A stretch of DNA of 64,000 bases from assembly GCA_018713605.1 (NCBI GenBank), contig DVOM01000036.1, positions 14,268 to 78,267 on the forward strand, written 5' to 3'. The position numbers and the translations under genes are program-made. Below are positions 1,318-19,272 of this stretch, piece after piece. Position 1 is the first letter of the stretch. The number at the start of each line of letters is the position of its first letter. Origin of the DNA: Candidatus Scatocola faecigallinarum (GTDB taxonomy: Bacteria > Pseudomonadota > Alphaproteobacteria > RF32 > CAG-239). The notes under the pieces are model-generated. The model saw nothing but the letters and a program-made list of their open reading frames with translations, did not search any database and was not told where the DNA came from.

Positions 1318-1681
1318 AAGCGGTTATAAAAACCCGCCCAAACATTCGCAATTTCCGAAAGGGTGTTCGGGTAATCCTGCCGGGAGACCGAAAGGAAGCA
1401 AAAACACGCTGAAACTTCTGGATGCTGTTTTGGAACAGAAAATCAAAATCCAGCAAGAGGGCAAAACCATCAGCATTACCAAAAAGCAGGCGATGCTGAT
1501 GCAATTGGTCAATGCTGCGGTAAAAGGCGAGATTAAGGCCATTGCGGCACTTTTCCCGTATATGATGCAGCTAGACATGAAAGAAGAACAATCCTTAGAA
1601 ACAAGCAAATTATCTCTAAAAGATGAGGAAATTTTACAACAATTTTTAGAAGAAAATAAACAGGAGAGTAAAAATGACTGA
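1310..1681 (+). CDS. DUF5681-like phage protein (the kind usually found just upstream of the large terminase; possible small-terminase role)
   Basis: 'MSESGYKNPPKHSQFPKGCSGNPAGRPKGSKN' matches the Gly/Pro/Lys-rich N-terminus I recall for DUF5681 proteins. The ATG at 1310 overlaps the methylase stop (1315-1317), and its own stop overlaps the terminase ATG at 1674. Confidence 0.6.
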   Translation: MSESGYKNPPKHSQFPKGCSGNPAGRPKGSKNTLKLLDAVLEQKIKIQQEGKTISITKKQAMLMQLVNAAVKGEIKAIAALFPYMMQLDMKEEQSLETSKLSLKDEEILQQFLEENKQESKND

Positions 1682-3239: not shown

Positions 3240-3245
3240 GACGTT

Positions 3246-3578
3246 TTACTTGGCGATTATTTCAAAATTGTCAATCAGCTTTAGCAGAGATTCCTTTTGA
3301 GAATCAGTCATAAGGTTGAGTTTGCGGATGATTTTGTCTTTCACGTCCTGCTGCGATATATCTTCTTTCAAATCTTTGGTAATATCAATGTCCAAAGCGA
3401 AAAGCAGTTTGTACAGCGAGTAGGAGCGCGGATTTTGCTTTTGATTCTCAATTAAGTTAATAGACGAATAATCCATACCGCTCAGCTCGGACAATTTTTC
3501 ACTGGAAATTTTGCCGGCTAATCGTCTTTTTCGAATAGAATCGCTGATAAGCCTTAAAAACTCTTTTTCATTAAGCAT
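3246..3578 (-). CDS. XRE-family helix-turn-helix transcriptional regulator (CI-like, no peptidase domain)
   Basis: HTH_3-like segment 'KISSEKLSELSGMDYSSINLIENQKQNP'. It is divergent from the 3700-6503 operon across an AT-rich region with promoter-like hexamers. Confidence 0.75.
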   Translation of the reverse strand: MLNEKEFLRLISDSIRKRRLAGKISSEKLSELSGMDYSSINLIENQKQNPRSYSLYKLLFALDIDITKDLKEDISQQDVKDKIIRKLNLMTDSQKESLLKLIDNFEIIAK

Positions 3579-3699
3579 GCTTCACCCCTTAAAAATATAT
3601 TGGGATGATACAATAGCTTTTTTGATAAAAGTATTGCGATAAAACAATATAATTTTATTGACTAAACAAAATAATTAAATCAACATAAGGAGAAAGAAA

Positions 3700-3993
3700 A
3701 TGGCGTTAGTTTACGTTACGGACATTGAATATCAGGCAGATATAAAAGTATTTGCCGTTAATGAGAGGTATCAGGCTGATTTATGTTTTTTCGAGGTTGA
3801 TCGAGATTACAAGGCCAATACGGAGGCAAAATGGTTTTTTGAAGATAAGGACTATAAAGCGACGGTTAAAATATATTGGGTTGAACATGAGTATCAGGCA
3901 GATCTTAAAGTCTTCCGTGTTACGCAGGAACACCTAGCCGGTTGGCAAAAGAGCCACCGTTTGATTACGAGATTGGGAAAATACACATATTAA
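3700..3993 (+). CDS. Small internally repetitive protein ((E/D)Y(Q/K)A(D/N/T)-type repeats; DUF6150-like from memory)
   Basis: Five roughly 13-aa repeats: DIEYQADIKVFAV / NERYQADLCFFEV / DRDYKANTEAKWFFE / DKDYKATVKIYWV / EHEYQADLKVFRV. A strong RBS (AAGGAGAAAG) lies just upstream of the ATG. Confidence 0.6.
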   Translation: MALVYVTDIEYQADIKVFAVNERYQADLCFFEVDRDYKANTEAKWFFEDKDYKATVKIYWVEHEYQADLKVFRVTQEHLAGWQKSHRLITRLGKYTY

Positions 3994-4005
3994 AGGAGAT
4001 AAAAA

Positions 4006-4254
4006 ATGACAGAGGAAGTTAAAAAAGAAACCCCAAAAACAAAATTGCCCGGCTTGCCGCCGTTGGCTGCGTTTATTTATGCGGTTCTCATTTTTATTAT
4101 GACCATGGGGTACCTTAAGGTATTTCTTATCATGGGTTTAAGGATGAATCCTGATGAAGCCGGAATATTGTCATTTTTTGCGGGAGCCTTTTTTGCCTAT
4201 ATCGGCAACAAAGGAGTTAGAGCCATGTTTAAGTTGAGAGAACTGTTGAAATAA
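4006..4254 (+). CDS. Small membrane protein (two predicted TM helices)
   Basis: Hydrophobic stretches LPPLAAFIYAVLIFIMTMGYL and ILSFFAGAFFAYIG. RBS AAGGAG upstream. Tightly packed within the operon. Confidence 0.5.
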   Translation: MTEEVKKETPKTKLPGLPPLAAFIYAVLIFIMTMGYLKVFLIMGLRMNPDEAGILSFFAGAFFAYIGNKGVRAMFKLRELLK

Positions 4255-4257
4255 AGG

Positions 4258-5079
4258 ATGCAGATTATGGTTAGGATATTACGCGCGGCAACTTGGAACT
4301 TTGGCTACGGTTCTGTTGGTTCACCCAGCAAGAATAACAAGACGAAAGTTCAAAAAGCCCTTGAATATCTGCGGAAAAATAATGTGGATATTGTTTTGGC
4401 GCAGGAAATTTTTGAACCAAGCGAGTTGCGGCGTCTTTATCCTAACCAGATTTATTCTGACATTCCCGTTTATAATCCGCAGGGGCAAGGATTATGGGGC
4501 GCGATGGATTTTTCGATCGATACACGCAATAACAATAGCCGCCCTAAATGGGGAACGGCGATATTGGCTGCCGAGAATGTCAATTTGAACAAAATTGAGT
4601 TAAAATATAGCACGGCCTATCCGGGAAGCATGACTGTTGCACAGATTGCAGGAATGGACATTGCCGTTATTTCCATGTATGGCAAAAATGTCTGCGATTA
4701 TGATAAAGTAACGGCTTTTTCGTATCTGGCCAATCTGCATCGCTGTTTATCCGATACTGCGCCGCTGCTGGACGGTTTTTCTTCTGCCAAAAGATTTATT
4801 ATTGCCGGCGATTGGAATGCCGGGCCGCAATGGGATAAGGAGAAGTCGCGCAAGAATTTTAACTTTTTTGAGCGGTTAGCAACCTTTGATCTTAAGGATT
4901 GTTTGAGGCATTTTCCTGACGGCGGTTATGAAACAACATTTAAACATAACGGGAATCGACAGATAGACTGGATGTTTGCCAGCCAGACGTTTACCGCCCA
5001 TAATCCGCATGTTGATTATGCGGCGGAGATTGAGGATTTGTCTGATCATTACCCGATAATTGCGGAATTTGAGATATGA
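4258..5079 (+). CDS. Endonuclease/exonuclease/phosphatase (EEP) family protein
   Basis: 'ATWNFG' near the N-terminus, 'IAGDWNAG', and the C-terminal 'SDHYPIIAEFEI'. These are the characteristic EEP (DNase I / AP-endonuclease fold) catalytic blocks. No signal peptide. Confidence 0.8.
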   Translation: MQIMVRILRAATWNFGYGSVGSPSKNNKTKVQKALEYLRKNNVDIVLAQEIFEPSELRRLYPNQIYSDIPVYNPQGQGLWGAMDFSIDTRNNNSRPKWGTAILAAENVNLNKIELKYSTAYPGSMTVAQIAGMDIAVISMYGKNVCDYDKVTAFSYLANLHRCLSDTAPLLDGFSSAKRFIIAGDWNAGPQWDKEKSRKNFNFFERLATFDLKDCLRHFPDGGYETTFKHNGNRQIDWMFASQTFTAHNPHVDYAAEIEDLSDHYPIIAEFEI

Positions 5080-5507
5080 AAAAGGGTAATGTAATGTTTT
5101 GGAAATTCTTATTTTTAGGCTTTATTGTATGTTTTTCTGTTCAAGCACAGGAAAAAGCCAATAGTACCAGCGAACAAAATGATTATGGTATCTTTATTAT
5201 CGGTGTTGCGATTTATTTACTTTTTAAAGCAGTGGGGGTTATCTGGCATTATCGCTGTCCGAAATGCAAAAAATGGTGGGTAATGCGACAGGAAAAGAAA
5301 GAACTGCTGAATACGGATGTTATGACCGAATCCAGAAAAGAAGAAATAAAAGACAATAACGGAAATGTGCTGCGGGTAGAGGAAGTAAAGGTTCCTGTAT
5401 TGGTTCATCATTATGAAATTTGGCGAAAATGTAAGCATTGCGGACATCTTGTTAAGATTTTTGAAGACGAGAAGGAAGAAAAATATAACAGAACAACGCT
5501 TAAATAA
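5076..5507 (+). CDS. Membrane-anchored zinc-ribbon protein
   Basis: N-terminal signal/TM segment plus a second TM segment, then two CxxC pairs (CPKCKKWW ... CKHCGH). The start overlaps the stop of the EEP gene (ATGA). Confidence 0.5.
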   Translation: MKKGNVMFWKFLFLGFIVCFSVQAQEKANSTSEQNDYGIFIIGVAIYLLFKAVGVIWHYRCPKCKKWWVMRQEKKELLNTDVMTESRKEEIKDNNGNVLRVEEVKVPVLVHHYEIWRKCKHCGHLVKIFEDEKEEKYNRTTLK

Positions 5508-5522
5508 TGAGAGGAAACAGAT

Positions 5523-6503
5523 ATGCGGAAAATTAGTTGGCTGGCGATTTTGTTGATAGGCGGATGTACTCTGATAGTAGAACAGAGTAATCTTGTTTCC
5601 TTAAATGATTCTTCAGAATTCCGCCTTCTGAATGAACAGGTATTCATACGCTCGTGCCGTCAGCTTAAGGAAGAAAGTTATGATATTTTCTATGCGGCGG
5701 AAAATCAAAAATGTCTGGAAGAGAATGCCAAGCAAATGCAAAAGCTGTCCGAACAGATTGAGCAGACGAATGATTTAATTAAGAAAGAGAAACTTCTTGA
5801 TGATGTATTGGTAAGTTCTGAAAAGTTTGATGCCTGTAAAATATCTAAGGGGTTAACTGTTGCCGGTTTTGCTGAACAATCTAATGATAGCGCTGTTACA
5901 TACTGGAAGCGTGATAAAATAATCGCTTATTTTACCCAAGTCTATCAGATTTGTGAAAACGGAGAATATTTTGATAAGAATGACGGAAACCGTATTGTTG
6001 CGGATTATCAAACTGTGGCGCGGCAAAAAGAGAAAAATACGCCGAAGATAGAAAAATTTAAGGAATTAAAAAGCGAAATTTCCTCTCAAAATCAGATGAA
6101 TAAAAAGATTGCGGCGCTTTTAGTCGAGGACAATCCGATTATAAGAAAAATGCAACAGGCGGCTCCGGATTTTATGCGGGTAAAGGTTAATAAATGTCCG
6201 ATTATCTTTTTTGTCCAGTTTCTTATAGAAGATGCGGCAAAGTTTAATTCTGATTTTGCCTTTACTGACAACTATCAGTTTATGAAAAAAGGCGCAGACA
6301 CGCTTGTTTTGACTGTCGGCGATATTGAATATACTTTCCTGAAAAAAGGAAAAAACAGCGCGGATGTCATCGTTGTCAAAGATGTTGACCAATGGGGCAA
6401 TCAAATAATCAATAAAAGCACTATTCTAAATAACATTGATGTTTCCTCATCGTGCTGGGGGTATGTGAGACATCGAGGAAGAGCAAATTATAATTTCTAT
6501 TAG
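5523..6503 (+). CDS. Putative lipoprotein, function unknown
   Basis: Lipobox-like 'AILLIGGC' at the N-terminus. Last gene of the 3700-6503 co-directional cluster. Confidence 0.5.
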   Translation: MRKISWLAILLIGGCTLIVEQSNLVSLNDSSEFRLLNEQVFIRSCRQLKEESYDIFYAAENQKCLEENAKQMQKLSEQIEQTNDLIKKEKLLDDVLVSSEKFDACKISKGLTVAGFAEQSNDSAVTYWKRDKIIAYFTQVYQICENGEYFDKNDGNRIVADYQTVARQKEKNTPKIEKFKELKSEISSQNQMNKKIAALLVEDNPIIRKMQQAAPDFMRVKVNKCPIIFFVQFLIEDAAKFNSDFAFTDNYQFMKKGADTLVLTVGDIEYTFLKKGKNSADVIVVKDVDQWGNQIINKSTILNNIDVSSSCWGYVRHRGRANYNFY

Positions 6504-6931
6504 TGCCTTCCCAAAAAGATATTTGGTGATAAAATTTAATTTTATTACTGTGAAAACATATATGTTTTTTTGTAAATTAGAAACCTTATCAATTTATTGC
6601 AATATTAAACAGTTTTTTGTATTTATTTAATAAATCCTGACAATCATCATCACAAATATCTGCATTTAGCTTTTTTTACTTCTAATTAATGTGTCTTTTG
6701 GCATCATGGATGATTTCTTTCTATGTTACAGTCTGTAATATAATTTCCATTGAATTTTTCTTCTAGGTATCCTTCTTGGGTAAATTTGGATCTAATAATA
6801 TTTGAAATTTGACTAGAGGGCAAACAATATTGTTATAAACAATCCTCCATTTCTCTGAATATGCTCTCTTATTATAATCTTGTTTTCATATTATTAATTT
6901 AAAATACTTTCAAAACTAATTTTTTAACGTA

Positions 6932-6977
6932 TTGACATTGAAATAAAAAACATATATTAATTTACCAAATAGGTAAA
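6932..6977 (+). promoter_or_regulatory. Predicted sigma70-type promoter plus inverted-repeat operator of the higB-like operon
   Basis: TTGACA (6932-6937), a 17-nt spacer, TATTAA (6955-6960), then the inverted repeat TTTACC-aaata-GGTAAA (6961-6977). This all lies 20 nt upstream of the GTG at 6997. Confidence 0.5.
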
Positions 6978-6996
6978 TTTTAAGAGAATAACTATA

Positions 6997-7320
6997 GTGA
7001 AATTAATAATAGATAATGGACGCTTAATAAAGCAATTAAGCGATGAGAAGAACTCAAAAAAGGCTTTTGGGGAATTGTCTGACTCTGTATATAGGAGAAT
7101 CCAATATCTAGAAGCAGCAGAAACTCTTGCAGATGTTTCGCATCTTCCTCCTCATAGAAGACATGTATTGACGGGGAAATATAAAGGGTGCTTTGCAATT
7201 TGTGTTGACAAGCGGCTTAGAATAATTTTTAAGCCAAACGAGGATGGTAATAACGATATTTCAAATTTATCCAACATAAGAGAAGTATGCATAATTGCAA
7301 TTGAGGACTATCATGACTGA
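6997..7320 (+). CDS. higB: HigB-family (COG3549 'killer protein') type II toxin
   Basis: The overall pattern and the C-terminal '...IIAIEDYHD' parallel Proteus vulgaris HigB (...LNYEDYH). 'HVLTGKYKGCFAICVDKRLRIIF' corresponds to 'HPLKGDREGYWSITVRANWRITF'. Confidence 0.75.
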   Translation: MKLIIDNGRLIKQLSDEKNSKKAFGELSDSVYRRIQYLEAAETLADVSHLPPHRRHVLTGKYKGCFAICVDKRLRIIFKPNEDGNNDISNLSNIREVCIIAIEDYHD

Positions 7321-8443
7321 GATGGAAAAGAAAATGAGCAACAACCCAAAAATTATATATGAAGGTATTCCATATTTTCATCCAGGACTGTTATTGAAGG
7401 AAATCTTGGAGGCTAGAGGTATTGAGCAAAAAGATTTTGCACAAAGAACGGGATTTACAGAAAAACATATATCCTATGTATTAACCGGTAAATCAGATAT
7501 TACTCCATCTTTTGCTGAAAAATTGGCGATAACCTTAGAAGAATCTGCTAATACGTGGATGAATTTGCAGTCTAAATTTGATGTAATAAAAAAAGAAGTC
7601 GAGTTAGCGGAAGAATTAAAAGATCATGTTAAATTGCTTAAAGATTTTCCTATCAAGGATATGGTAAAGAATAGGTTAATTGCTCCAGTAAAAGAGCCAT
7701 GGAAACAAGTAAGAGAGCTTATGTCGTTTTTTGCTGTGGGAGACATAACAAAACTAAAACAATTTTCAATTAACAACTACTCTGTTAGATATAGGGCATT
7801 AAATACAGGCGAAACATCCGAAGCTAAAGCTGTTCTATTTAGATGGGGAGAGAAGATTGCTATTGGACGAGAAACTCCACCACCCTATAAAAAAGAACTA
7901 TTAGAACAGGCTGTAATAAATATTCGGAATAACATGTTATTATCTTTCGCAGACGCCTTAGAGTATATAAAAGAAGAACTTAAAAAAGCAGGTGTTATAT
8001 TCATATTTACCCCAAAAATTAGCAATGCACCTGCTTCCGGATATAGTTATAGGTATAAAAGTAATCCTGTTATTCTTATAACCTACCGAAATCGGCAAAT
8101 TGATACTTTTTGGTTTTCTTTATTCCATGAAATATATCATATATTAAATGGTGATCTTGATATGGAAGAAAGTAAAGAAATGGAAATTGCTGCAAATAAG
8201 TATGCAAAAAATACTATTATTCCTTTAAAAGATTGGGTTCTTTTCTGGGCTGGCAATTCCAGGAATATTACAGAAGAAAAGATATTAACTTTATCGTCTA
8301 AGTTTAATGTTCCTAAAGCAAGTATTATAGGACGGCTTCAGGTGGAAAAATTTATTAAACAATGTGATTTTTTATACTTAAAAGAAAAAATGGATATTAA
8401 AACATTTGATGGAATAATATTTGAAGAGGAGAATATTTTATGA
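7313..8443 (+). CDS. HigA-type HTH antitoxin fused to an ImmA/IrrE (COG2856) zinc metallopeptidase domain
   Basis: N-terminus 'FHPGLLLKEILEARGIEQKDFAQRTGFTEKHISYVLTGKSDITPSFAEKLAITLEESANTWMNLQ' is a HigA (COG3093) signature. The C-terminal half carries the HExxH motif 'LFHEIYHILNGD'. The ATG at 7313 overlaps the higB stop. Confidence 0.8.
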   Translation: MTEMEKKMSNNPKIIYEGIPYFHPGLLLKEILEARGIEQKDFAQRTGFTEKHISYVLTGKSDITPSFAEKLAITLEESANTWMNLQSKFDVIKKEVELAEELKDHVKLLKDFPIKDMVKNRLIAPVKEPWKQVRELMSFFAVGDITKLKQFSINNYSVRYRALNTGETSEAKAVLFRWGEKIAIGRETPPPYKKELLEQAVINIRNNMLLSFADALEYIKEELKKAGVIFIFTPKISNAPASGYSYRYKSNPVILITYRNRQIDTFWFSLFHEIYHILNGDLDMEESKEMEIAANKYAKNTIIPLKDWVLFWAGNSRNITEEKILTLSSKFNVPKASIIGRLQVEKFIKQCDFLYLKEKMDIKTFDGIIFEEENIL

Positions 8444-9591
8444 CAGAATATGTTTTTTACTATCCAATTTTAAAATGGAAGCAAGGAGAATACAAAGCTC
8501 TTCATAGTCTAAACCCACAAATAAAAGATCGTATTTGTCCAATTATTGAGATAACACCTATAGGTTATGATCCTGAAAGTAAAGAAAATAGAATAACAAT
8601 AGATGAACATATAAAAGACATTGGTATAAGGCTGCGAAAATATTGGGAAGATAGAACATCTTTTATTGATACTATAAAATTAGATGCACCAGAAGAACAA
8701 AAACCTGCATATGTAAATAAAATTTTTGATAATTGTTTTAATTCTTTTTGCAGAGTTATTCCAGTTGTTCACTTGAAAGATAGTGATCAATTATTGAAAA
8801 CATATAAAGAAATCATAAAAAAACATAGATATGGCTGTATGCTAAGGGTAAATATGAATGAAATTGCGGATGATATAGCAGATAAAGTGAGAGCAATTTT
8901 AGAGAAACTTGATACTAATGCTACAGAAACATACTTATTAGCTGATTTTGATGTTATCAAAATTGGTGACGATGAAGTTTATGATATTTATTCTGAGCAA
9001 TTATGCAAAATATTTAATATTTTTGATTGGCATACAACAATAATTGCAGGATCCTCTTTCCCAGAAGAAATGACAGATGGAACTCTCAATAATAGATATG
9101 AGTGGAATTTATATGACAATTTTCTGAAGAAGTTTGCGATAACATCTAAAGAACCTAAATTTTCTGATTATTATATTTTAAATCCTGAGCATTCTTTTCC
9201 TCATGATGGAAAAATAATTAAGCCGAAAGCTAAATTACGTTATACCACAAATAATGGATGGTATTTTAATAAAATTCCTCCAAAATCAAAAAGAAATAAA
9301 GATATAGATGAAGTGGGTAAAGAATTAACAGAAGGAGAAAAATATAAATTTCTGTGTAAAGATTTAATAGCTAACTCTATTTTTAGAGGACCCTCATTTT
9401 CAAAAGGTGATGAATACATATATAAACAAGCAACAGATCCAAAAGCTAAAGGAGGAAATGCATCAATCTGGGTGGAAGCTTCTACTAATCAACACCTTAC
9501 CAAGGTCGTAAATGATTTGTCCAAGCTTCTCGGTTTTTCATTGCGTTGCGAACAAGGTCTTTTAGGTCTTTTAGAGAGAACTCTTGAGTAA
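8440..9591 (+). CDS. Beta-protein (PF14350)/sce7725-like family protein, function unknown
   Basis: The N-terminus 'YYPILKWKQGEYKALHSL' matches my recollection of the YxPxLKxKxGExxAL signature of this family. ATGA overlap with the upstream ImmA-fusion gene. Confidence 0.55.
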   Translation: MTEYVFYYPILKWKQGEYKALHSLNPQIKDRICPIIEITPIGYDPESKENRITIDEHIKDIGIRLRKYWEDRTSFIDTIKLDAPEEQKPAYVNKIFDNCFNSFCRVIPVVHLKDSDQLLKTYKEIIKKHRYGCMLRVNMNEIADDIADKVRAILEKLDTNATETYLLADFDVIKIGDDEVYDIYSEQLCKIFNIFDWHTTIIAGSSFPEEMTDGTLNNRYEWNLYDNFLKKFAITSKEPKFSDYYILNPEHSFPHDGKIIKPKAKLRYTTNNGWYFNKIPPKSKRNKDIDEVGKELTEGEKYKFLCKDLIANSIFRGPSFSKGDEYIYKQATDPKAKGGNASIWVEASTNQHLTKVVNDLSKLLGFSLRCEQGLLGLLERTLE

Positions 9592-10096
9592 GACGTGTAT
9601 AAAGTTCTTCTTTGTTTTTACGTAATTCTTTGGATGGGATCCCTTTAGAATGAAGCAAATTTATAACCTCATCTTTCCACAAAAGCTGTACTAGTGAATG
9701 AGAATCAACATTCTTATTTAGTTTACCTTTTCTATATTGTTTAAATTTTATAGTTCTGTTTTTTGTGTGTTTAACAAGTTGTATTTCCCACCAATCAGGT
9801 ATTATTTCTAAAGCCTTTTGAAGATGATTTTCTCCAACTACTAGTGTAGCTTTATCCAAAATTTTACTATAAACTTTTTCTTGATAAGGTAATCTATCTA
9901 GAGTATCCGCTTCGCTTTTTATTTCGTATCCATGAAGAGATCCATTTACAACAGCAATATCAACTCTGCATGCTCCCTGTAATAATCCTAATTCATTGAG
10001 CACAATAGTATCAAAAGCATCTTCATGTTTTTTCAGAATATTATTATACAGACTCTTCCTTATATCTGAATCTTTAAGTAAATCGCGATTCATCAA
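9497..10096 (-). CDS. sce7726/MmcB-like PD-(D/E)xK nuclease-fold protein
   Basis: 'NELGLLQGACRVDIAVVNGSLHGYEIKSEADTLDR' gives an E...D-x12-ExK arrangement typical of restriction-endonuclease-fold proteins. It is convergent with the Beta-like gene and overlaps it by 95 nt. Confidence 0.55.
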   Translation of the reverse strand: MMNRDLLKDSDIRKSLYNNILKKHEDAFDTIVLNELGLLQGACRVDIAVVNGSLHGYEIKSEADTLDRLPYQEKVYSKILDKATLVVGENHLQKALEIIPDWWEIQLVKHTKNRTIKFKQYRKGKLNKNVDSHSLVQLLWKDEVINLLHSKGIPSKELRKNKEELYTRLTQEFSLKDLKDLVRNAMKNREAWTNHLRPW

Positions 10097-10154
10097 TTAA
10101 AGCCCCAAGCATTTAAAAGTTAAAATTTAGTTAACAAATTATATTTTATATAGT

Positions 10155-10685
10155 ATGTTAAATCAACTTAATAAAGATTATATTAACAAATTTCCTTTTT
10201 ATTTGACAGAAATAATGACTAAATGGGATGAAGTAGGAATAATATTTGTGATTAAAATTATAGATTTTGATCTTTCTCTAAGTTTTCAGCGTTTTCCTGA
10301 AGGATACAGAGATGATCAATCTGAATTTGTAGAACTTAAAGGTGAAATCGTTTTTTCAAGCACAAAAAATTATCTCAAAGGAACTCATGTTCCTATTTAC
10401 GCTTTTACAAAATTTGAACATCCCAATCCTTCTGATCCAAGTGTTTTTGAGTTTAAATATTCTGGAAGACAAAGAATATACGACGATGCGCCGTTGGCTG
10501 GCGCTTTTGATGGAAAATATGCACACATCTCTGTAAATGATCGATTTTTACAAACATTGTGCTTTATAAAACAATTAAATAAGGATGCTTATTTAGCATT
10601 TAATTGTGTTCGTAAAAAATATCAAAAACCATGTATTAAAAGTTACACTCTAAGTACAGAATTCAATCTTGAAGATTATGAGTAA
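10155..10685 (+). CDS. Hypothetical protein
   Basis: A 176-aa ORF in the AT-rich island with no motif I recognise. It is the only long ORF in this interval apart from a short ORF (10342..10536) nested in another frame. Confidence 0.4.
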   Translation: MLNQLNKDYINKFPFYLTEIMTKWDEVGIIFVIKIIDFDLSLSFQRFPEGYRDDQSEFVELKGEIVFSSTKNYLKGTHVPIYAFTKFEHPNPSDPSVFEFKYSGRQRIYDDAPLAGAFDGKYAHISVNDRFLQTLCFIKQLNKDAYLAFNCVRKKYQKPCIKSYTLSTEFNLEDYE

Positions 10686-11038
10686 CTATTTTTAGAAATA
10701 TTAATAGATAAAATCCCTGTTCTTTGATCAAAATATCCCTGATAAATTTATGGGTAGTTAGGTGCTATTCAAGTAAATCTGCATATTTGTGGGAATTTTG
10801 CATGTAAAATCCACCCAAATTTCCCTGTAGATTCCCTGTTATTAGAAAATGGGTAATGATGTATTTGTGATTCAGGAGTCGAAAAGATTGGTGGTCAACA
10901 AAATTTATTGGCGTTATATTGGAAATTGAGTTGAACAATATTGTGTTTAACCATAAATAGCGGATATTTGTTTAATTTTATTTGATTCTTTTAAGTATCT
11001 TGGTACTCTGAAAATATAGGTTTATAGGGTAAGTTAAG

Positions 11039-12478
11039 ATGCTGGAACGAATTAGAAATCTTTTACAACAAGGCGAAGGTCTCAAGGTCGAATTTAAGGA
11101 AGCCCAAGGTGGTATGCCGAAAAGTCTCTATGCGACGGTATGTGCATTTTCCAATACGCAAGGGGGCGAAATACTTTTGGGTATCGCAGATAATGGCCAA
11201 GCTTTAGGTATTGCACCGAATAAGGTGGCTCAATATAAAAAGGATTTTGTTAATACAATAAATGATTCTGGTAAAAATTGTCCGCCTCTATATTTATCTA
11301 TTGATACTGTAGAAATTGATGGAAAAATAATTCTATATGTTAATGTTCCACAAAGTTCAGAAGTTCAACGTTGTGACGGAAAAATTTATATCCGCAATGA
11401 AGATGGTGATTTTGATATAACACACCAACAAAATCGTGTTGCTAATTTGTATGCTCGTAAACAGAATACATATTCTGAAAGTAAAATTTATAAGAATGTT
11501 GCATTAACAGATTTAAGATTGGATTTGATCGCTCGCGCGAGAAAATTGGCTGTTATTCGGCAACCTGGACACCCATGGACAGAACTGAACGATTTGGAAT
11601 TATTGAAAAGCTCTGGATTATATAAAAAGGATTATATTTCCGGTGAAGAAGGCATAACGTTGGCAGGAATTCTACTACTCGGTAAAGATGATGTTATAAA
11701 ATCTGTACTTCCTCATTTTAAAACTGATCTAATTATTAGAGTAAAAGATTCATCTCGTTATGATGATAGAGATGACGTTAGGACGAATCTTATAGAAAGT
11801 TATGACCATATCATGGATTTTGTTAATAAACACCTCCCATCACCTTTTTACTTAGAAGGATCTGTAAGAGTAGATGTACGAAATGTTATATTTCGAGAAA
11901 TAGCTGCTAATTTATTAATTCATAGAGAATATAACAGCCATTTTCCAGGAAGGTTTGTTATTGAGAAAGATAAAATTTTTACAGAAAATGGAAATAAACC
12001 ATATATTCATGGAAATATTAATCCTGAGCTAAGTGTTCCATACCCTAAAAACCCAACGATTGCTAAGTTCTTTAAGGAAATTGGCTTAGCAGAAGAGTTG
12101 GGCTCCGGGGTTAGGAATCTTGTAAAATATTCAAAGTTTTATGCTGGATATATTCCTGTTTTAACGGATACAGAGATTTTTAGATTAGATTGGAAAATTA
12201 ACTTATTTGATGAAAAAGAACAAGATGTTGTAGAGATTAGTGATCAAGTTAGTGATCAAGTTAGTGATCAAGTTAGTGATCAAGTTAACAAGATTCTTGA
12301 GTTTTGTTTGTCACCGCGTTCATTAGTTGAAATTATGGCGCAAACAAAATATGCAAGTAGAGTGCACTTTAGTAATAAGATATTAAAGCCTTTAATTAAG
12401 AAAGGATTAATTAAACAAACTGCACCAAATAAACCGAATAGTCCTAATCAAAAATACGTTACGGTAATTAAAGAATGA
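11039..12478 (+). CDS. AlbA_2 (Schlafen-like 'divergent AAA') / HATPase_c_4 / C-terminal wHTH protein
   Basis: The N-terminus 'EGLKVEFKEAQGGMPKSLYATVCAFSNTQGGEILLGIADNG' is the classic AlbA_2 signature. Mid-region motifs 'REIAANLLIHREY' and 'AEELGSGVRN' fit HATPase_c_4. The C-terminal 'LKPLIKKGLIKQT' looks like a winged helix. Confidence 0.75.
   Translation: MLERIRNLLQQGEGLKVEFKEAQGGMPKSLYATVCAFSNTQGGEILLGIADNGQALGIAPNKVAQYKKDFVNTINDSGKNCPPLYLSIDTVEIDGKIILYVNVPQSSEVQRCDGKIYIRNEDGDFDITHQQNRVANLYARKQNTYSESKIYKNVALTDLRLDLIARARKLAVIRQPGHPWTELNDLELLKSSGLYKKDYISGEEGITLAGILLLGKDDVIKSVLPHFKTDLIIRVKDSSRYDDRDDVRTNLIESYDHIMDFVNKHLPSPFYLEGSVRVDVRNVIFREIAANLLIHREYNSHFPGRFVIEKDKIFTENGNKPYIHGNINPELSVPYPKNPTIAKFFKEIGLAEELGSGVRNLVKYSKFYAGYIPVLTDTEIFRLDWKINLFDEKEQDVVEISDQVSDQVSDQVSDQVNKILEFCLSPRSLVEIMAQTKYASRVHFSNKILKPLIKKGLIKQTAPNKPNSPNQKYVTVIKE
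12239..12286 (+). repeat. Perfect 12-bp tandem repeat (AGTGATCAAGTT x4) encoding SDQV x4 inside the AlbA_2 gene
   Basis: Read directly: agtgatcaagtt repeated four times head to tail, in frame, in the linker before the C-terminal wHTH. Confidence 0.95.
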
Positions 12479-12596
12479 AGGTTAAACCATCTTGTTAAGG
12501 CTTAACTTGTGACCTTTTATCTCTGTGACCGTGATAATATTTTCTATTCTTTTCTTTAGTATGCTCAATACCGTTGAAGTTTACTATTCCGCCATT

Positions 12597-14069: not shown

Positions 14070-14279
14070 TTATTTTTCGTCTTTCTTTTTTTCTTCTTCG
14101 GCGGCGTTGGCGATGTCTTTTTTCAGCTCTTGTGCTTCGTTTTGCAGCATGTCCCGCGCTTTTTTGTATTCATACTGTGCTCTGCCGAGGGCTTTGGCGA
14201 GTTCGGGAATTCTTTTGCCGCCAAAAAGAATCAGAACAACGATTAGAATCAATACGATTTCGGATAAACCTAAAGACAT
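14070..14279 (-). CDS. tatA: Twin-arginine translocase subunit TatA/E
   Basis: '[34 protein letters not shown]' is the canonical TatA N-terminus. Confidence 0.9.
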
Positions 14280-14289
14280 TATTTTCTCC

Positions 14290-15564
14290 TTATAAAATTT
14301 TCTGTGTTTCTACGGGAATTACGGTAATGGCATTTACCGGACAGGCATTCTGGCATGCGCCGCAGCCAATGCAGCCTTTGGCGTCGATTTGCGGAAAGCC
14401 GCCGTTTTTTCGGCAAATAATCTGACGCGGGCATTTCATGACGCAAATGCCGCATTTGATGCAGGTGTTTTCGTCGACAGCGGCCAGGCCGATTTGTGTT
14501 TTCCGCTTTTCTGCCAGAGAAATTTTTTTAATGGCTCCCGACGGACAGACAGCAGAACAATTATGACAGTCATAGTCGCAAAAACTCTCGGCGTAGTCAA
14601 TATGTACGGCAGGATAATCCGCTGACGCCTTTTTTATGATTTTCATCGGGCAGCCTGCGACGCAGAGGTTGCAGTTGAGGCAGCGGCTGGCAAATTCTCT
14701 GGGGTTGCCAGCACCTGCAGGAAGAATGACTTTTTTAGTTTTGTCGGCGATTGTCCGGCTGAGCCTGATGCCGCCTTTTACGGCTACGGACAAAACCGCC
14801 GCTGCGGCCGCCGCTGTCAACAATCTGCGTCTTTCCGGACTGAACGGAACTGCCGCAACCGGTTCGCTGCGGTAATCAATGCCGTTTTGCCGACAAACAG
14901 TAAGGCACTTGAAGCATTTGATGCAGGTTTCGTTGTTGACGGTTTTGCTTCTGAAGTCAATACTGCCGGTTGGACATCCGGTTGCGCAAAGGCCGCAGGA
15001 AACACACTGTTCCGAGTTAATCAGAATTTTTTTACGGGCATGGATGGCAAGCAGGCCGAGGAGGGTTCCGACCGGACAGATGTTGGCGCAAAAAATACGT
15101 CCAAAAAACCAGGTCAGAACGGCAACGAATCCGAAAGCAGCCAGTCCGGGAAGCGCGCCGCTTGCCGCCGAACCGAAAAGAGCGTAGGGGTCAATCAGGC
15201 GAATGACGGCAACCGTGCCGCCGAGCAGCATGCCGAAGAAAACGGCAGCAAGAAAATATTTGGCCGGACGGTTTTGACGATAGCCGGTGCGGCGTCGGAA
15301 AAACAGCATCAGAAATTCCTGGAGCAGCCCGAAAGGGCAGAGGGTCGAGCAATAGACACGGCCGAAAAAGAGCGTGAGAAGCAATAATGCGCTGAGAAGA
15401 ATTGCCGCGGTCAGCGAGACGTCGACGAGAAAACGCTGCAGCAGCGCGGTCAATTGGAGGTCAAAAATTTTTACGGGATAAAATGCACTGAAAAAGGCAA
15501 GAAAGCACAATATGCCTGTAACCCAGGCGATGAAACAGCGAATGCGAAAGTAAGTTTTGTTCAT
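14290..15564 (-). CDS. Membrane polyferredoxin: NapH-like integral-membrane half fused to a NapG-like multi-[4Fe-4S] half
   Basis: The N-terminal TM region has the '[12 protein letters not shown]' and '[12 protein letters not shown]' motifs plus CxxCxxCxxxCP clusters. An internal '[21 protein letters not shown]' segment follows, then four more CxxCxxCxxxCP ferredoxin motifs. Confidence 0.75.
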
Positions 15565-15678
15565 TTTTTTCTGTTCGTTATGGCAATCGGTTACTTAAAG
15601 CATAAACCTTAGAGTCCGCTTTAAGTCAAGTCTTTTTATCCGTTTTCGGAGAAAACGTTTGGCCGCAGATACCGCGGC

Positions 15679-16074
15679 TTAGTCCCATCTTTTGAAGACG
15701 AAAAAAGCTGCCAGCAGAAGGAGCAGAAAACCGACCGCGTCGTTCCATTTCAGCCCTTCTTTGAGGTAAAGCGCCGAAAAGACTGCAAAAACCGCAAGGG
15801 TAATGATTTCCTGCATGATTTTAAGCTGCGGGGCGGTAAAATAGTCATGGCCGATGCGGTTGGCGGGAACTTGAAAGCAATATTCGAAAAAGGCTATTCC
15901 CCAGCTGGCCAGAATTACGGTCCACAGGGCGGCTGATTTGTATTTGAGGTGGCCGTACCAGGCGAAGGTCATGAAAATATTTGAAACGACAAGCAGTACA
16001 ATCGGATAAAACTGTCTCATTTTCATTCTCTGAAGAAGTTGTAAAACTGCCATTGATAATATGACCGGGAACAT
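15679..16074 (-). CDS. Small DMT-superfamily membrane protein (DUF486-like); start codon uncertain (16074, 16026 or 16020)
   Basis: 'NIFMTFAWYGHLKYK' and 'FEYCFQVPANRIG' resemble the DUF486/DMT small transporter family. Four TM helices. Confidence 0.6.
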   Translation of the reverse strand: MFPVILSMAVLQLLQRMKMRQFYPIVLLVVSNIFMTFAWYGHLKYKSAALWTVILASWGIAFFEYCFQVPANRIGHDYFTAPQLKIMQEIITLAVFAVFSALYLKEGLKWNDAVGFLLLLLAAFFVFKRWD

Positions 16075-16087
16075 TTAATTTCAAGGC

Positions 16088-16120
16088 AGAAAATACGGAA
16101 TCCGGTTGCGCGGATTCCGT
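16088..16120 (-). terminator. Hairpin (possible terminator or attenuator) between the NAS-like gene and the DMT gene
   Basis: Perfect 10-bp stem ACGGAATCCG-n6-CGGATTCCGT, followed on the minus strand by ATTTTCT. Confidence 0.5.
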
Positions 16121-16150
16121 ACCTTTCGTTTCAGGAGTTATATTTGATGT

Positions 16151-16939
16151 TTATTGTATTTCAAGGAGAAAAGATGAGTTTAACGTCATATTGTCTCCGG
16201 CATGATAGCTGCTTATTTTATATTTCTGAAAAATTTCCCTTTCCAGTTCGGCATAAAACAGGCAGGAGAATTTTTCAGCGTCCCGCACAATCAGATATTT
16301 GATTCCGGTGTTGTGCAGTTTATTGACCAGGGATGTCTTTTCATCGATCATGCTGGCGATGAAAACCAGGTCATATCTGCGATAGTCCGCCTGTGCGGCT
16401 TCGGCGTGAATGAAGCCGAAGTCAAGGTTCAGACTGTCGCATAATCGTTTTGAAAGCGTCAACGCTTTCAAATCTTTGTCAATCAGGTCGATTTCGTAAC
16501 CGCCGAGCTGCCGTAACAGAATCGCGGTTATCGGCAGAGGGCCGGAACCGACGAAAGCAATGTGCCTGACATTGGGCAGGTCTTTGATGAAGCCGTATTC
16601 ATTCAGGGTAATCTGTCGATACTGTTCGTAATACCAGAAAGCTTTCAGCCGGTTTATGCTGCCGTTCGGTTCTTTGCAAAATCGGGCAGCCCAGTATTTT
16701 TCCATCTCGCATTCGGCGCATTGGGCAATGCTGCGGATTTTGCCAACCAGCGGCCTGATGCCGGGGCTGTTCAGAATTTTGTCGCAAAATGTCTGCGTAC
16801 AGACGTTTTTTTCTATCAGCGTCATGACCAGACGATTAAGAACGCGGCAGAGCGTTTCGTTGTCCGGCGTCATGTCTTTCTGCCGACGGAGAATCCTATA
16901 GGAATCCTGAATGAAAGAAATTGTTTCCGGCTCAGTCAT
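16151..16939 (-). CDS. Nicotianamine synthase (NAS)-like / CntL-like metallophore synthase
   Basis: 'HIAFVGSGPLPITAILL' matches the NAS SAM-site motif (plant 'VAFVGSGPLP', archaeal MtNAS 'AVFIGGGPLPLTGILL'). Also 'CEMEKYWA', 'FWYYEQY' and 'YDLVFIASM', with a length near the roughly 266 aa I recall for archaeal NAS. The first ATG is at 16939; the listed start at 16951 is a TTG. Confidence 0.8.
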   Translation of the reverse strand: MTEPETISFIQDSYRILRRQKDMTPDNETLCRVLNRLVMTLIEKNVCTQTFCDKILNSPGIRPLVGKIRSIAQCAECEMEKYWAARFCKEPNGSINRLKAFWYYEQYRQITLNEYGFIKDLPNVRHIAFVGSGPLPITAILLRQLGGYEIDLIDKDLKALTLSKRLCDSLNLDFGFIHAEAAQADYRRYDLVFIASMIDEKTSLVNKLHNTGIKYLIVRDAEKFSCLFYAELEREIFQKYKISSYHAGDNMTLNSSFLLEIQ

Positions 16940-16958
16940 GATTTGTTCCAAATTACGG

Positions 16959-16986
16959 TTGACTTATTTGTTGAGAATGATAATCT
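16959..16986 (+). promoter_or_regulatory. Predicted promoter of the fur operon, overlapping the Fur box
   Basis: TTGACT (16959-16964), a 16-nt spacer, TAATCT (16981-16986). Confidence 0.45.
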
Positions 16987-16991
16987 TTCTC
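16973..16991. promoter_or_regulatory. Fur box (16 of 19 matches to GATAATGATAATCATTATC)
   Basis: GAGAATGATAATCTTTCTC read directly, lying between the divergent NAS-like and fur genes. Confidence 0.75.
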
Positions 16992-17002
16992 AAACAGAAG
17001 AT

Positions 17003-17031
17003 TTTATAAAACTTTATTTTTTATGTGTCAA
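17003..17031 (-). promoter_or_regulatory. Predicted promoter of the NAS-like gene; the Fur box sits just downstream of its -10 element
   Basis: On the minus strand: TTGACA (17031-17026), a 17-nt spacer, TATAAA (17008-17003). Confidence 0.5.
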
Positions 17032-17051
17032 CATTTTTTATGAGGAAATTT

Positions 17052-17465
17052 ATGTCGCTTTTTGAGAAAGTATTTAAGGAAAAGGGAATCAATATGACGT
17101 CTTCCCGGCGGGCGCTGTTTCAGGTGCTGGAGAATTCGAAAAACCATCTTACGGTGGACGAGATTCTGAACCGGGCGAGAAAAAAAGACAAGACGCTCGG
17201 CCTGGCAACGGTTTACCGTACTCTGAACATGCTTTGCGAACTCGGCCTGATTGAAAAACACGAGTTTCCGAATTTGGAGCCTGCGTACGAAAAGGTTTCG
17301 GGGGAGGCGCGTCACCACCATCATATTATTGATATGGGAGACGGTGCGGTTACCGAATTTGCGGCTGACGAGCTGGACGCCATTTTGGAGAAAATTGCGG
17401 CGGCGCACGGTTATAAGATGCTTGGGCATAAGATTGAAATATACGGAGAAAAAACTGAAAAATGA
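17052..17465 (+). CDS. fur: Fur-family metalloregulator (Fur, Zur or similar)
   Basis: 'TSSRRALFQVLENSKNHLTVDEILNRARKKDKTLGLATVYRTLNMLCELGLIEKHEF' is a Fur-type wHTH, and the His-rich 'ARHHHHIIDMG' looks like a metal site. The ATG at 17052 follows a GAGGA RBS. Confidence 0.85.
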   Translation: MSLFEKVFKEKGINMTSSRRALFQVLENSKNHLTVDEILNRARKKDKTLGLATVYRTLNMLCELGLIEKHEFPNLEPAYEKVSGEARHHHHIIDMGDGAVTEFAADELDAILEKIAAAHGYKMLGHKIEIYGEKTEK

Positions 17466-18781
17466 CTGATGCGGTCGAAATTGTCAGCGATTTGGTCAAA
17501 ATTCCTTCGGTTTCGCCGTTCGGACGAAACGAAACAGAACGTCGCGAGCGCTTTGAGCGTTGTCGCGAAGTCCTTGCATATCTGGAAGAGTTTTTGCAGA
17601 AACAGGGTGCGCAGACCGAGCAGCTGGTTTTTGAAGGCGGGCATGACAAATGGTGGTATCCGGTGCCGAATCTGTATGCGGAACTGACTATCGGCGACAG
17701 GAAGGCCGCCGGTCACAAATTTTTATGTTATATGGGGCATATCGACGTTGTTCCGGTTGGCGAAGAAAAGCTCTGGCGTCGGCCGCCTTTTTCCGGACAG
17801 GTTGACGAAGGTTTCGTCTGGGGGCGGGGCGCAACGGACATGAAAGGCAGCGTCGGCGCCTGGATGAGCGCTCTGGAAAAGCTGAAAGCCGGCAAAGGCG
17901 ACGGCGTAAACCTGACGATCGGCACGCTGATTACCGGCGACGAGGAATGGGCTGCGGTTAACGGCAGTGACAAGGTGTTGGCCTGGATGAAAGCCAACGG
18001 CAAAAATCCCGATGCTTTTATCGTCGGAGAACCGTCGTCGCGGGATTATCTCGGAACGCATGTCAAAACCGGCCGCCGCGGTTCGCTGGTCGGATATCTG
18101 GAGGCAAAGGGAACACAGGGACACCGGGCTTATGAGGAGCTGTTTGAAAATCCGAACCGGGCGCTGGCTTACGCCATGGTTATTCTTAATGCCAAAAGAT
18201 GGAAAGACGGCAGCCGGCATTTTCCGAATACGACTTTCGAAACGGTGGCCCTGCGGTCTGGCGATTTTGCCGCCAGCGCGGTTATTCCGGAAACAGCCGG
18301 GGCAATGTGGAACGTGCGGTTTACGAGCCGGCAGAGCAAAGAAAAGGTGCTGGCCGATTTGCAGGAGATATTGTTGAATCCGCCGCGTTTCCTGCGCAGG
18401 CATCCTGATTATGCCAAGGCACGGGAAGTGATCGTGCGGGCAAATATGGAAACGGCGTCGGAACCTTATTATTCGGAACCGGGATCGTTGGCGCAGAGTG
18501 CGCTTGAAGCTATTCGCGCATCGCTGCGAATCGAGGCACAGACCGACGGTTCGGGCGGAACGACCGACGGCCGTTTTATCGGCAGATATTTTCCTCGGGC
18601 GCAGATTATTGAACTCGGAACGCCCGAGAAAGGCGGCATCGTTGACGGCAAGCCGCGCAGCGATTACGGCAGAAGAGGCGGCATGCATCAGATTGATGAA
18701 CGGGCGGCACAGCAGGATTTGCGGAAAGTAAGCGAAATTTATGCCTTAACCCTGAAAAATTTTGCCATGAAGGAGTATTGA
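17462..18781 (+). CDS. M20-family metallopeptidase (DapE/ArgE-like desuccinylase/deacetylase)
   Basis: 'LVKIPSVSP', 'YMGHIDVVPVG', 'GRGATDMKG' and 'ITGDEEW' are M20 metal-ligand blocks. The start overlaps the fur stop (ATGA). Confidence 0.8.
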   Translation: MTDAVEIVSDLVKIPSVSPFGRNETERRERFERCREVLAYLEEFLQKQGAQTEQLVFEGGHDKWWYPVPNLYAELTIGDRKAAGHKFLCYMGHIDVVPVGEEKLWRRPPFSGQVDEGFVWGRGATDMKGSVGAWMSALEKLKAGKGDGVNLTIGTLITGDEEWAAVNGSDKVLAWMKANGKNPDAFIVGEPSSRDYLGTHVKTGRRGSLVGYLEAKGTQGHRAYEELFENPNRALAYAMVILNAKRWKDGSRHFPNTTFETVALRSGDFAASAVIPETAGAMWNVRFTSRQSKEKVLADLQEILLNPPRFLRRHPDYAKAREVIVRANMETASEPYYSEPGSLAQSALEAIRASLRIEAQTDGSGGTTDGRFIGRYFPRAQIIELGTPEKGGIVDGKPRSDYGRRGGMHQIDERAAQQDLRKVSEIYALTLKNFAMKEY

Positions 18782-18783
18782 CG

Positions 18784-19272
18784 ATGGTTGAAGTCAAAGT
18801 TTTACGCGAAGAAAATCTGGCCGCGGCGGAACAGCTTTATGTGGCTTCGGTTCGGGACAATCCGCAGGGGTTTATCCAGCAGCTGCATCTTTTTCCGAAC
18901 ATCAAGACATTTATCCGACAGGCTGAACGCGACGGCGGTATATTTGCCGGCGTTTTTGAAAACGGGCAAATCGTCGGAATGGGCGGTATCGTCAGGAAGA
19001 GCGACAGAGAGGCCGAAGTCTGTAAAATTCATGTCCGCAAAGAGTTTAAGGGGCGCGGGTATGGCGAAAAGCTGTTAAATTATCTGGAACGCATGGCGCG
19101 TCGGAAAGGCTTTGAAAAACTGCGTCTGCATGTTACGACGAGCCAGCGTCCGGCGATTAATCTGTATCGGAAGCAGGCATTTTTGCCGACCGGAAACGAG
19201 GTTTATATTACGGAGATTGAGGGCAAGGCATATGAATATGATACCTTGTATATGGAAAAATTAATTGTTTGA
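18784..19272 (+). CDS. GNAT-family N-acetyltransferase
   Basis: 'KIHVRKEFKGRGYGEKLLNYLERMARRKGFEKLRLHV' is the acetyl-CoA-binding motif A (R/Q-x-x-G-x-G/A). Confidence 0.85.
   Translation: MVEVKVLREENLAAAEQLYVASVRDNPQGFIQQLHLFPNIKTFIRQAERDGGIFAGVFENGQIVGMGGIVRKSDREAEVCKIHVRKEFKGRGYGEKLLNYLERMARRKGFEKLRLHVTTSQRPAINLYRKQAFLPTGNEVYITEIEGKAYEYDTLYMEKLIV

Follow-up and report, generated by a model that had tools for sequence, protein, structure and literature searches.

A nicotianamine-synthase-like gene under a conserved Fur box, linked to genes for a DapE-like hydrolase and an acetyltransferase in uncultured Alphaproteobacteria

What would a nicotianamine synthase (NAS)-like enzyme make in a gut alphaproteobacterium in which its gene faces a fur gene across a Fur box and has no opine dehydrogenase gene beside it? 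The question is raised by a 64,000-nucleotide stretch of DNA from Candidatus Scatocola faecigallinarum (contig DVOM01000036.1), analysed here at its full length and referred to as the window. NAS-family enzymes move the 3-amino-3-carboxypropyl (aminobutyrate) group of S-adenosylmethionine (SAM) onto an amine. The known bacterial NAS-type enzymes have been studied within the CntLM opine zincophore systems of pathogens and, as far as we know, no prokaryotic NAS-like enzyme that works without a partner has been characterised apart from the archaeal one. Our overall reading, to which we give a probability of about 0.58, is that the gene belongs to a Fur-regulated cassette, composed of NAS, an M20-family metallohydrolase and a GNAT acetyltransferase, that makes a non-opine nicotianamine-type chelator.

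The enzyme and its conserved partners

The features of the locus on which the argument turns are the following:

16151..16939, minus strand: gene for an NAS-like aminobutyryl (3-amino-3-carboxypropyl) transferase, 262 amino acids from its ATG, containing IAFVGSGPLPITAILL
16973..16991, no strand: palindromic Fur operator (Fur box) GAGAATGATAATCTTTCTC, lying between NAS and the divergent fur-M20-GNAT genes, at about +5 to +23 of the NAS mRNA
17003..17031, minus strand: predicted NAS promoter, with -35 TTGACA at 17031-17026, a 17-nucleotide (nt) spacer, -10 TATAAA at 17008-17003 and a predicted +1 near 16996
17052..17465, plus strand: Fur/Mur-type regulator, 137 amino acids, no cysteines, Pfam FUR 108 bits
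17462..18781, plus strand: long DapE-like M20 metallohydrolase, 439 amino acids, its start overlapping the fur stop (ATGA), Pfam M20 and M20_dimer
18784..19272, plus strand: GNAT N-acetyltransferase, 162 amino acids, Pfam Acetyltransf_1, homologue of Helicobacter pylori HP0935
16085..16121, minus strand: intrinsic-terminator-like hairpin and U-tract ending the NAS transcript, stem 16094-16121 of 11-13 bp

The NAS protein matches the Pfam NAS family (PF03059) with 68.6 bits against a cut-off of 27.1, its residues 10-255 covering positions 12-265 of the 276 in the profile. In a single-sequence search of the PDB, its best solved relatives are the entries of the Methanothermobacter enzyme MtNAS (E = 2e-10), with Staphylococcus aureus CntL reaching only E = 0.14, while a 13-member NAS-family profile gives 2.8e-22 for MtNAS over residues 40-261 and 1.2e-12 for the S. 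aureus CntL. The family-invariant AECEMEK aligns on the LEMEK of MtNAS, which is the E81 motif and reads LQMEK in the E81Q entries; Y107 pairs with MtNAS Y107 in the profile alignment, and the GSGPLP that is invariant in the clade corresponds to the GxGxLP SAM motif. The AlphaFold model (pLDDT 94) combines the N-terminal helical domain and the Rossmann domain of the NAS fold, and Foldseek superposes it on MtNAS (3fpe) with a TM score of 0.84 over 263 columns, on CntL with 0.74, and on methyltransferases with at most 0.5, over the Rossmann part only. Because of the Pfam score, the MtNAS profile match, the catalytic motifs and the fold match, a reading as an ordinary methyltransferase fails, and the first-pass annotation of this DNA was right to see a true NAS-family protein, as it was in placing that gene, the DMT gene, the hairpin, the divergent Fur gene and the Fur box. 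The equivalog model for CntL (NF033601) is scored with 17.4 bits against a cut-off of 350, and an exhaustive NAS profile search retrieved 257 clusters (50% identity) at E <= 1e-30. By sequence and modelled fold, the product is a predicted active NAS-type aminobutyryl transferase of an alphaproteobacterial clade of its own, nearer to the archaeal thermonicotianamine synthase than to CntL.

A scan of 185,579 species genomes with an NAS signature returned 40 loci, and a scan of the same genomes with a signature of the long M20 protein returned 45 loci in 43 assemblies; about 55 related loci were compared. By their labels the 40 NAS loci are nearly all alphaproteobacterial (Micavibrio-like, Hyphomicrobiales, Rhodomicrobium and unclassified metagenome-assembled genomes); the other labels are a few that read Proteobacteria or Pseudomonadota only, a single Patescibacteria group and a single Bdellovibrionales. 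Clustering of the open reading frames showed that in about 27 loci the NAS gene is followed by a co-directional M20 gene of 440-505 codons and then by the GNAT gene, the M20 start abutting or overlapping the NAS stop in about 27 loci. The same M20 and GNAT genes follow fur in the window (17462-19272), so that the description of a stand-alone, minimal locus first given to this DNA has to be abandoned: the two genes behind fur are conserved partners that form one operon with NAS in about 27 genomes. Five gut-clade species, that of the window included, all keep NAS divergent from fur-M20-GNAT at NAS identities of 41% to 100%, and the genes outside this block differ from one to the next (prfA, a WG-repeat protein gene, a penicillin-binding protein gene, atpC or, in the window, DMT_6).

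The adjacency of NAS and M20 survives four geometries, the two genes remaining neighbours also when they are divergent without fur (L059, L062 and L084) and when they converge (Rhodomicrobium L016 and L092). The GNAT gene comes after the M20 gene in nearly all related loci, and directly after NAS in L015. Of the 43 assemblies with the long M20 signature, 32 have the NAS signature too, and in another four tblastn detects an adjacent NAS gene. The neighbourhood of the archaeal Halocatena NAS gene was uninformative. An NAS protein identical to that of the window is encoded on many contigs from human-gut metagenomes, the longest reaching 510 kb, and metagenomes of the chicken, bovine and mouse gut contain the window DNA as well. 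Within the species collection the closest genome is uncultured Alphaproteobacteria UMGS241, whose NAS protein has 58% identity. Full-text literature searches on NAS and CntL in connection with Alphaproteobacteria, dapE, Micavibrio or Rhodomicrobium turned up no NAS-M20-GNAT cassette and no alphaproteobacterial NAS. As far as gene order and predicted protein families can tell, NAS, a DapE-like deacylase and an acetyltransferase constitute an undescribed alphaproteobacterial cassette.

What the long M20 protein is matters for any pathway. Against NCBIfam it scores 302.8 with the dapE model PRK13009 (cut-off 284) and 239 with TIGR01246 (cut-off 361.8), and its best PDB matches are all DapE (E = 2e-48). 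The DapE residues named in the literature are the His194 oxyanion motif, Arg258, Thr325 and Arg329 (PMC10815964); the long M20 keeps the H194/Y197 motif (QGHxAY), R258, T325 and R329, as well as the metal ligands. It has about 60 extra residues, including an insert of about 17 before the last metal-ligand His, and is recognised by the signature peptides GGMHQ[VI]DE and ELG[LT]PE[RK]GG. Identity is 30-39% to the canonical DapE of Sinorhizobium, Methylobacterium, Paracoccus, Sphingomonas, Neisseria and E. coli, and 46-80% within the long clade, which in a neighbour-joining tree (no bootstrap) includes members from Hyphomicrobiales metagenome-assembled genomes and is sister to the canonical alpha-, beta- and gammaproteobacterial DapE, not nested in the alphaproteobacterial DapE. 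We consider it likely, from these comparisons, that the long M20 is an NAS-linked paralogue. A 374-residue M20 protein encoded near NAS in Hyphomicrobiales was considered as a positional DapE orthologue and ruled out, for it belongs to the ArgE/DapE subfamily TIGR01910 of NCBIfam and its identity to the long M20 is 22-26%. The alignment of the cassette GNAT with HP0935 (PDB 8iym, 1.4e-29) is full-length; HP0935 acetylates DprA in vitro and, at a very high Km, free amino acids (PMC12273574).

In four loci (L021, L035, L044 and L045; for instance L035:7871-12591) the order is Fur box, cupredoxin (PF13473), FTR1 (PF03239), NAS, M20 and GNAT, the box standing about 2.1 kb upstream of NAS, ahead of the cupredoxin gene. 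FTR1 in these loci has a C-terminal extension of about 250 residues ending ...RFKLEYE..F. Its stop codon lies within an element of 14-18 nt, GTTTTCTGACAAACT, which loci lacking FTR1 have likewise kept, about 45 nt upstream of NAS. Two further neighbourhoods were observed. In about 25 environmental loci (such as L024:8768-9742) an aldo/keto reductase gene lies divergent beside the Fur-box promoter of the NAS operon and stays with that promoter even when cupredoxin and FTR1 are inserted; it is absent from the gut clade. The plant deoxymugineic acid synthase is an aldo/keto reductase. In two low-GC relatives (L062:3553-9793 and L084:2742-10616) the cassette lies beside a superoxide dismutase gene and a cluster of rubrerythrin, Fur-PerR-like regulator and flavodiiron-like genes, all named from N-terminal sequences only, which would place it in an oxidative-stress neighbourhood.

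Fur-type control and transcription

The first-pass annotation had also proposed a near-consensus Fur box, and this has been strengthened. The box has 16/19 matches to the E. coli consensus GATAATGATAATCATTATC and is the sole site with at most 3 mismatches in the 64 kb, 0 being expected from shuffled sequences. Four gut-clade species (that of the window, L001, L051 and L053) share exactly the same 19-mer in a spacer that has otherwise diverged, and the fifth (L052) has a palindromic variant of it. Boxes of the type GAGAATGAT-NN-TCAWTMTC stand at the operon head in 23 further loci, and a homologous operon headed by this type of box occurs in about 28 species; when all loci were scanned with GAGAATGATNNTCATTCTC, allowing up to 3 mismatches over 632 kb, there was 1 off-target match. 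The box lies in the NAS/M20 spacer in the three loci in which these genes diverge without fur, and upstream of the M20 gene in L095. In the Micavibrio-like loci it is found 76-89 nt before NAS, after TTGACA...TATATT, and in another group 186-272 nt before NAS, after TTGACA-17-CTAAAT.

In the window, the NAS promoter was read by eye from the sequence and its start site is a prediction; a consensus promoter tool missed it because the tool demands T at position 6 of the -10 element. Its -35 TTGACA is retained in the gut-clade relatives, the Fur box begins 12 nt downstream of the predicted -10 (11 bases between), and the RNA contigs described below begin inside the box. On the fur side there is a conserved TTGACT at 16959-16964 without a good -10 at the proper distance. 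The regulator itself has as best solved relatives the Magnetospirillum Fur 4ray and the Fur-family protein 5fd5 (E = 6e-29). It has H32, E80, H88-H91, E102 and H126, with no CxxC and no cysteine at all; since the His and Glu residues are kept and Cys is absent, the sequence indicates an Fe/Mn sensor of the Fur/Mur type, not a Zur. With a box so conserved and functional-looking, the best reading is therefore that NAS would be under metal-starvation control by Fur and that its product would be nicotianamine-like and not an opine.

Seven Hyphomicrobiales loci are an exception, this Fur box being absent and a TGTAA-N5-TTACA palindrome being found instead. A conserved palindrome, (A)TGTAAC-N3-4-GTTACA(T), lies about 40-90 nt upstream of NAS, between obg and NAS, in L012, L014, L019, L020, L023, L026, L032 and L048, and the Hyphomicrobiales NAS loci that have it are without Fur box and without long M20. 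It resembles the core motif of proteobacterial Zur sites, GTTA-N5-TAAC (PMC4176598), and control in that order may be by zinc instead of iron.

Nine other loci (L018, L022, L025, L029, L031, L033, L036, L046 and L049; for instance L025:9794-9982) have a leader of about 190 nt between the Fur-box promoter and NAS, absent from the window, in which an invariant 25-nt element, CTTCGTCGTGTAAGTGAAGATCCCC, precedes a long hairpin with 7 compensatory base-pair changes. The leader matches no Rfam family and is a candidate Fur-controlled cis-regulatory RNA or small RNA. Its derivation from a decayed FTR1 gene was not supported, the 14-18-nt element around the FTR1 stop codon being all that the two have in common. 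An Rfam scan of the window and five related loci returned tRNAs only.

The NAS gene of the window is transcribed in animal guts. Four chicken-gut metatranscriptomes each contain one NAS RNA contig, running from about 16131-16198 to 16982/16983 at a word depth of 12-49.5, against 0-4.2 over fur-M20-GNAT in the same runs, the contigs being unstranded and depth being only a rough guide to expression; two of the runs have a depth of 9-11 over the polyferredoxin gene downstream of DMT_6, and the remaining two almost none. In four runs of a second study NAS is the main RNA of a 5.6-kb stretch, and its 3' ends fall at 16080-16149, where the hairpin lies or slightly short of it. On the NAS strand this hairpin has a folding energy of -21 kcal/mol (z = -4.4), with UUUUCU after it. 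Over all eight gut metatranscriptomes the NAS contigs end at 16080-16198 and none bridges into the DMT gene. Such a discrete contig means that NAS is a monocistronic mRNA in vivo and that DMT_6 belongs to another unit; NAS is thus expressed in the gut, as a comparatively abundant mRNA.

Neighbouring genes and the rest of the window

Next to the NAS hairpin lies one further gene:

15679..16020, minus strand: DMT_6 (DUF486) membrane protein gene, Pfam DMT_6 159.6 bits; the open reading frame spans 15679-16074

Its real start is probably at 16020, which gives a protein of 113 amino acids, an RNA contig starting at 16041. A DMT-family neighbour might be taken for a partner of the NAS locus, an idea that does not survive the comparison: DMT_6 is absent from all gut-clade relatives and lies on a separate transcript. 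A promoter-like site of its own stands at 16084-16056, and an RNA contig (14200-16041) that begins just downstream of this site links it with the polyferredoxin gene. Because the outer flanks of the gut-clade loci are mutually unrelated, DMT_6 is specific to the species of the window, and as an exporter partner it was ruled out, being not conserved, having its own promoter and sharing a transcript with the polyferredoxin gene, not with NAS. The region 14200-16049 carries, on one strand, DMT_6, a gene for a NapH-like polyferredoxin of the membrane (424 residues) and genes that by position are TatA/TatC. The polyferredoxin is reminiscent of FtrD from the FtrABCD iron uptake systems, and the window has no FTR1 gene.

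Further away, positions 1-12500, beside a flavodoxin gene, hold prophage or mobile-element cargo (a terminase gene at 1818-3239, an HTH/M78 pair, and genes of the P4 cII-like and Beta_protein types). In other strains the cargo of this place differs, DNA methylase and HATPase genes or HD and nitroreductase genes being examples, and the region looks like a strain-variable integration hotspot. Within it, 11039-12478 encodes a 479-residue protein with four perfect tandem SDQV repeats near its C-terminus and no precomputed Pfam hit. A CDF-family cation-efflux gene (55629-56573) and a membrane H+-pyrophosphatase gene (51779-54208) are also present, with no Fur-type box near either.

The product, rival explanations and known systems

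How might such a cassette work? With sufficient metal, either Fe(II) or Mn, the Cys-less Fur/Mur-type repressor would sit on the shared box and block the NAS promoter, and would also damp fur-M20-GNAT. Under metal limitation NAS would be transcribed on its own, into an mRNA of about 0.9 kb that ends at the hairpin, and the enzyme would use SAM and an amine starter to build a nicotianamine-type polyamino-carboxylate chelator, with no opine (CntM) condensation. GNAT and the DapE-like M20 would be an N-acylation/deacylation pair acting on the alpha-amino group of the product or of the amino-acid starter. M20 deacylases serve a logic of protection and deprotection in arginine, lysine and diaminopimelate synthesis, and by analogy the same logic could have been carried over to the cassette. 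A non-opine metal chelator is probably what the cassette makes. No exporter or receptor is conserved in the related loci, the only transport genes linked being FTR1-type ion permeases, and because of this lack of a conserved exporter or importer, and of the link to an ion permease, a ligand that handles iron within the cell seems to us slightly more likely than a secreted metallophore. More speculative, and in our judgement rather doubtful, is a complete three-enzyme, Fur-controlled pathway in which a diamino acid would be protected, alkylated and deprotected to give a new chelator, serving inside the cell as acceptor for the iron that FTR1-type permeases import; N-acyl-diaminopimelate, for example, might be aminocarboxypropylated and then deacylated.

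Several observations weigh against a chelator made by the cassette as a unit. NAS occurs without the long M20 in seven Hyphomicrobiales genomes and in L015, and long M20-GNAT loci without NAS or box nearby are found in L081, L086, L088 and L090. Every DapE catalytic or substrate residue checked is kept in the long M20 and one dapE equivalog cut-off is passed, so the protein may be DapE and nothing more. HP0935, the nearest of the characterised GNATs, acetylates amino acids and proteins promiscuously, and H. pylori is, to our knowledge, without an NAS gene. In the gut metatranscriptomes NAS RNA stands far above that of M20 and GNAT, so that the three genes are not co-expressed here, although contig depth is a poor measure of expression. 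The genome was covered over 64 kb, and importers, a canonical dapE or cntM could lie elsewhere.

These points could be put together differently, with NAS alone making a (thermo)nicotianamine-like molecule, the M20 being a housekeeping succinyl-diaminopimelate desuccinylase, the GNAT a general acetyltransferase, and their adjacency reflecting inherited order or shared regulation. MtNAS-type enzymes are established to need no partner (PDB 3fpe), the window NAS is monocistronic with RNA far above that of M20 and GNAT, the M20 passes PRK13009 with its DapE residues kept, the HP0935 homologue is promiscuous, and the Hyphomicrobiales loci of group b and L015 have NAS without M20. We nevertheless regard this account as unlikely. 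A housekeeping enzyme would hardly be confined to 43 of the 185,579 species genomes and there be almost always beside NAS, nor fall outside the canonical alphaproteobacterial DapE at 30-39% identity, nor remain adjacent to NAS through four rearrangements; it would also be strange for an iron-uptake operon to hold an essential gene behind its Fur box. No named Rhodomicrobium or Micavibrio species is among the matches and, if such species are in the collection, both signatures would be absent from them, though a need for DapE is expected. Chelation itself might also be the wrong frame, the enzyme transferring an aminocarboxypropyl group onto a diaminopimelate-related or other metabolite, for example of the cell envelope, with the link to DapE chemistry primary and Fur control secondary. 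Several non-chelator uses of SAM aminocarboxypropyl transfer are reported, the linkage to a DapE-like enzyme is tight and no transporter is conserved. We find this improbable in view of the Fur box conserved in about 28 species and the FTR1-cupredoxin pair in the same operon in 4 species, and every NAS-family member whose characterisation we know of makes a metal chelator.

An opine metallophore of the canonical type (staphylopine, pseudopaline or yersinopine), with CntM and the transporters encoded elsewhere in the genome, is the explanation to which we give least credence, and we think it very improbable. In its favour are the 64 kb to which inspection was limited and the fold shared with CntL-type enzymes (TM 0.74). 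No Staph_opine_DH or other opine dehydrogenase is found among the precomputed Pfam hits of the called genes (about 6-64 kb and part of the prophage end at 1-6 kb), and no CntM-like gene or recurrent CntM-size partner in the about 55 related loci, those of the gut-clade relatives included, which extends to all of them the earlier statement that no CntM partner is nearby. In a survey, CntM genes were almost always co-located with the zincophore gene cluster (PMC7438024). The 17.4 bits with NF033601 against a cut-off of 350, the closer relation of the family to MtNAS, and a regulator and box of Fur and not Zur type all speak against an opine. We return to a Fur-regulated cassette that probably makes a non-opine chelator.

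If the cassette makes a new chelator, it would add a metal-handling strategy for gut and soil bacteria; if true, it would also give a new function to a paralogue of DapE that is labelled dapE by annotation pipelines. The three-enzyme pathway, if it exists, would concern a widespread alphaproteobacterial group, among whose members is a commensal prevalent in the guts of humans, poultry and cattle.

The cassette shares features with several known systems and differs from each of them: (i) MtNAS (PDB 3fpe, 3fpg and 3o31) is the best match in sequence and fold, is of similar length, has the catalytic Glu of the E81 motif and Tyr107, and likewise has no dehydrogenase partner or dedicated transporters nearby; identity is, however, about 17-25%, and the window NAS is bacterial, Fur-box controlled, tied to M20 and GNAT, and placed in a distinct clade with the invariant AECEMEK. 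(ii) The CntKLM systems (staphylopine, pseudopaline, yersinopine and bacillopaline) also have an NAS-fold aminobutyryl transferase and metal-starvation control, but CntM, CntK, CntE and CntABCDF are missing from the NAS locus, the CntL equivalog threshold is not reached, the control is of Fur/iron type as opposed to mainly Zur/zinc, and the partners are a deacylase and an acetyltransferase. (iii) The plant and fungal nicotianamine synthases belong to the same Pfam family, and the proposed intracellular Fe(II)/metal ligand would have a role like that of nicotianamine in the cytosol and phloem of plants; phylogenetically these synthases are far removed, and the three-unit condensation and azetidine ring formation are not evidenced for the window NAS. 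(iv) DapE (for example Neisseria 5UEJ) shares with the long M20 the metal ligands, the substrate residues and the PRK13009 match, whereas the long M20 is about 60 residues longer, falls below TIGR01246, forms a separate clade and has a distribution tied to NAS. (v) FTR1 uptake of the FtrABCD and EfeUOB type has its counterpart in the cupredoxin and FTR1 genes that lead the same Fur-box operon in four relatives; these are absent from the window, where a NapH-like polyferredoxin gene lies two genes away on another transcript. (vi) HP0935 (PDB 8IYM) is matched over the full length of the cassette GNAT (1.4e-29), and we know of no link between HP0935 and NAS or DapE; it has been studied as a protein and amino-acid acetyltransferase (PMC12273574). 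Taken together, these likenesses and differences point to a third NAS arrangement, Fur/iron-controlled, without an opine step, tied to a deacylase and an acetyltransferase and in some genomes to FTR1, which is conserved across many uncultured Alphaproteobacteria and expressed in animal guts.

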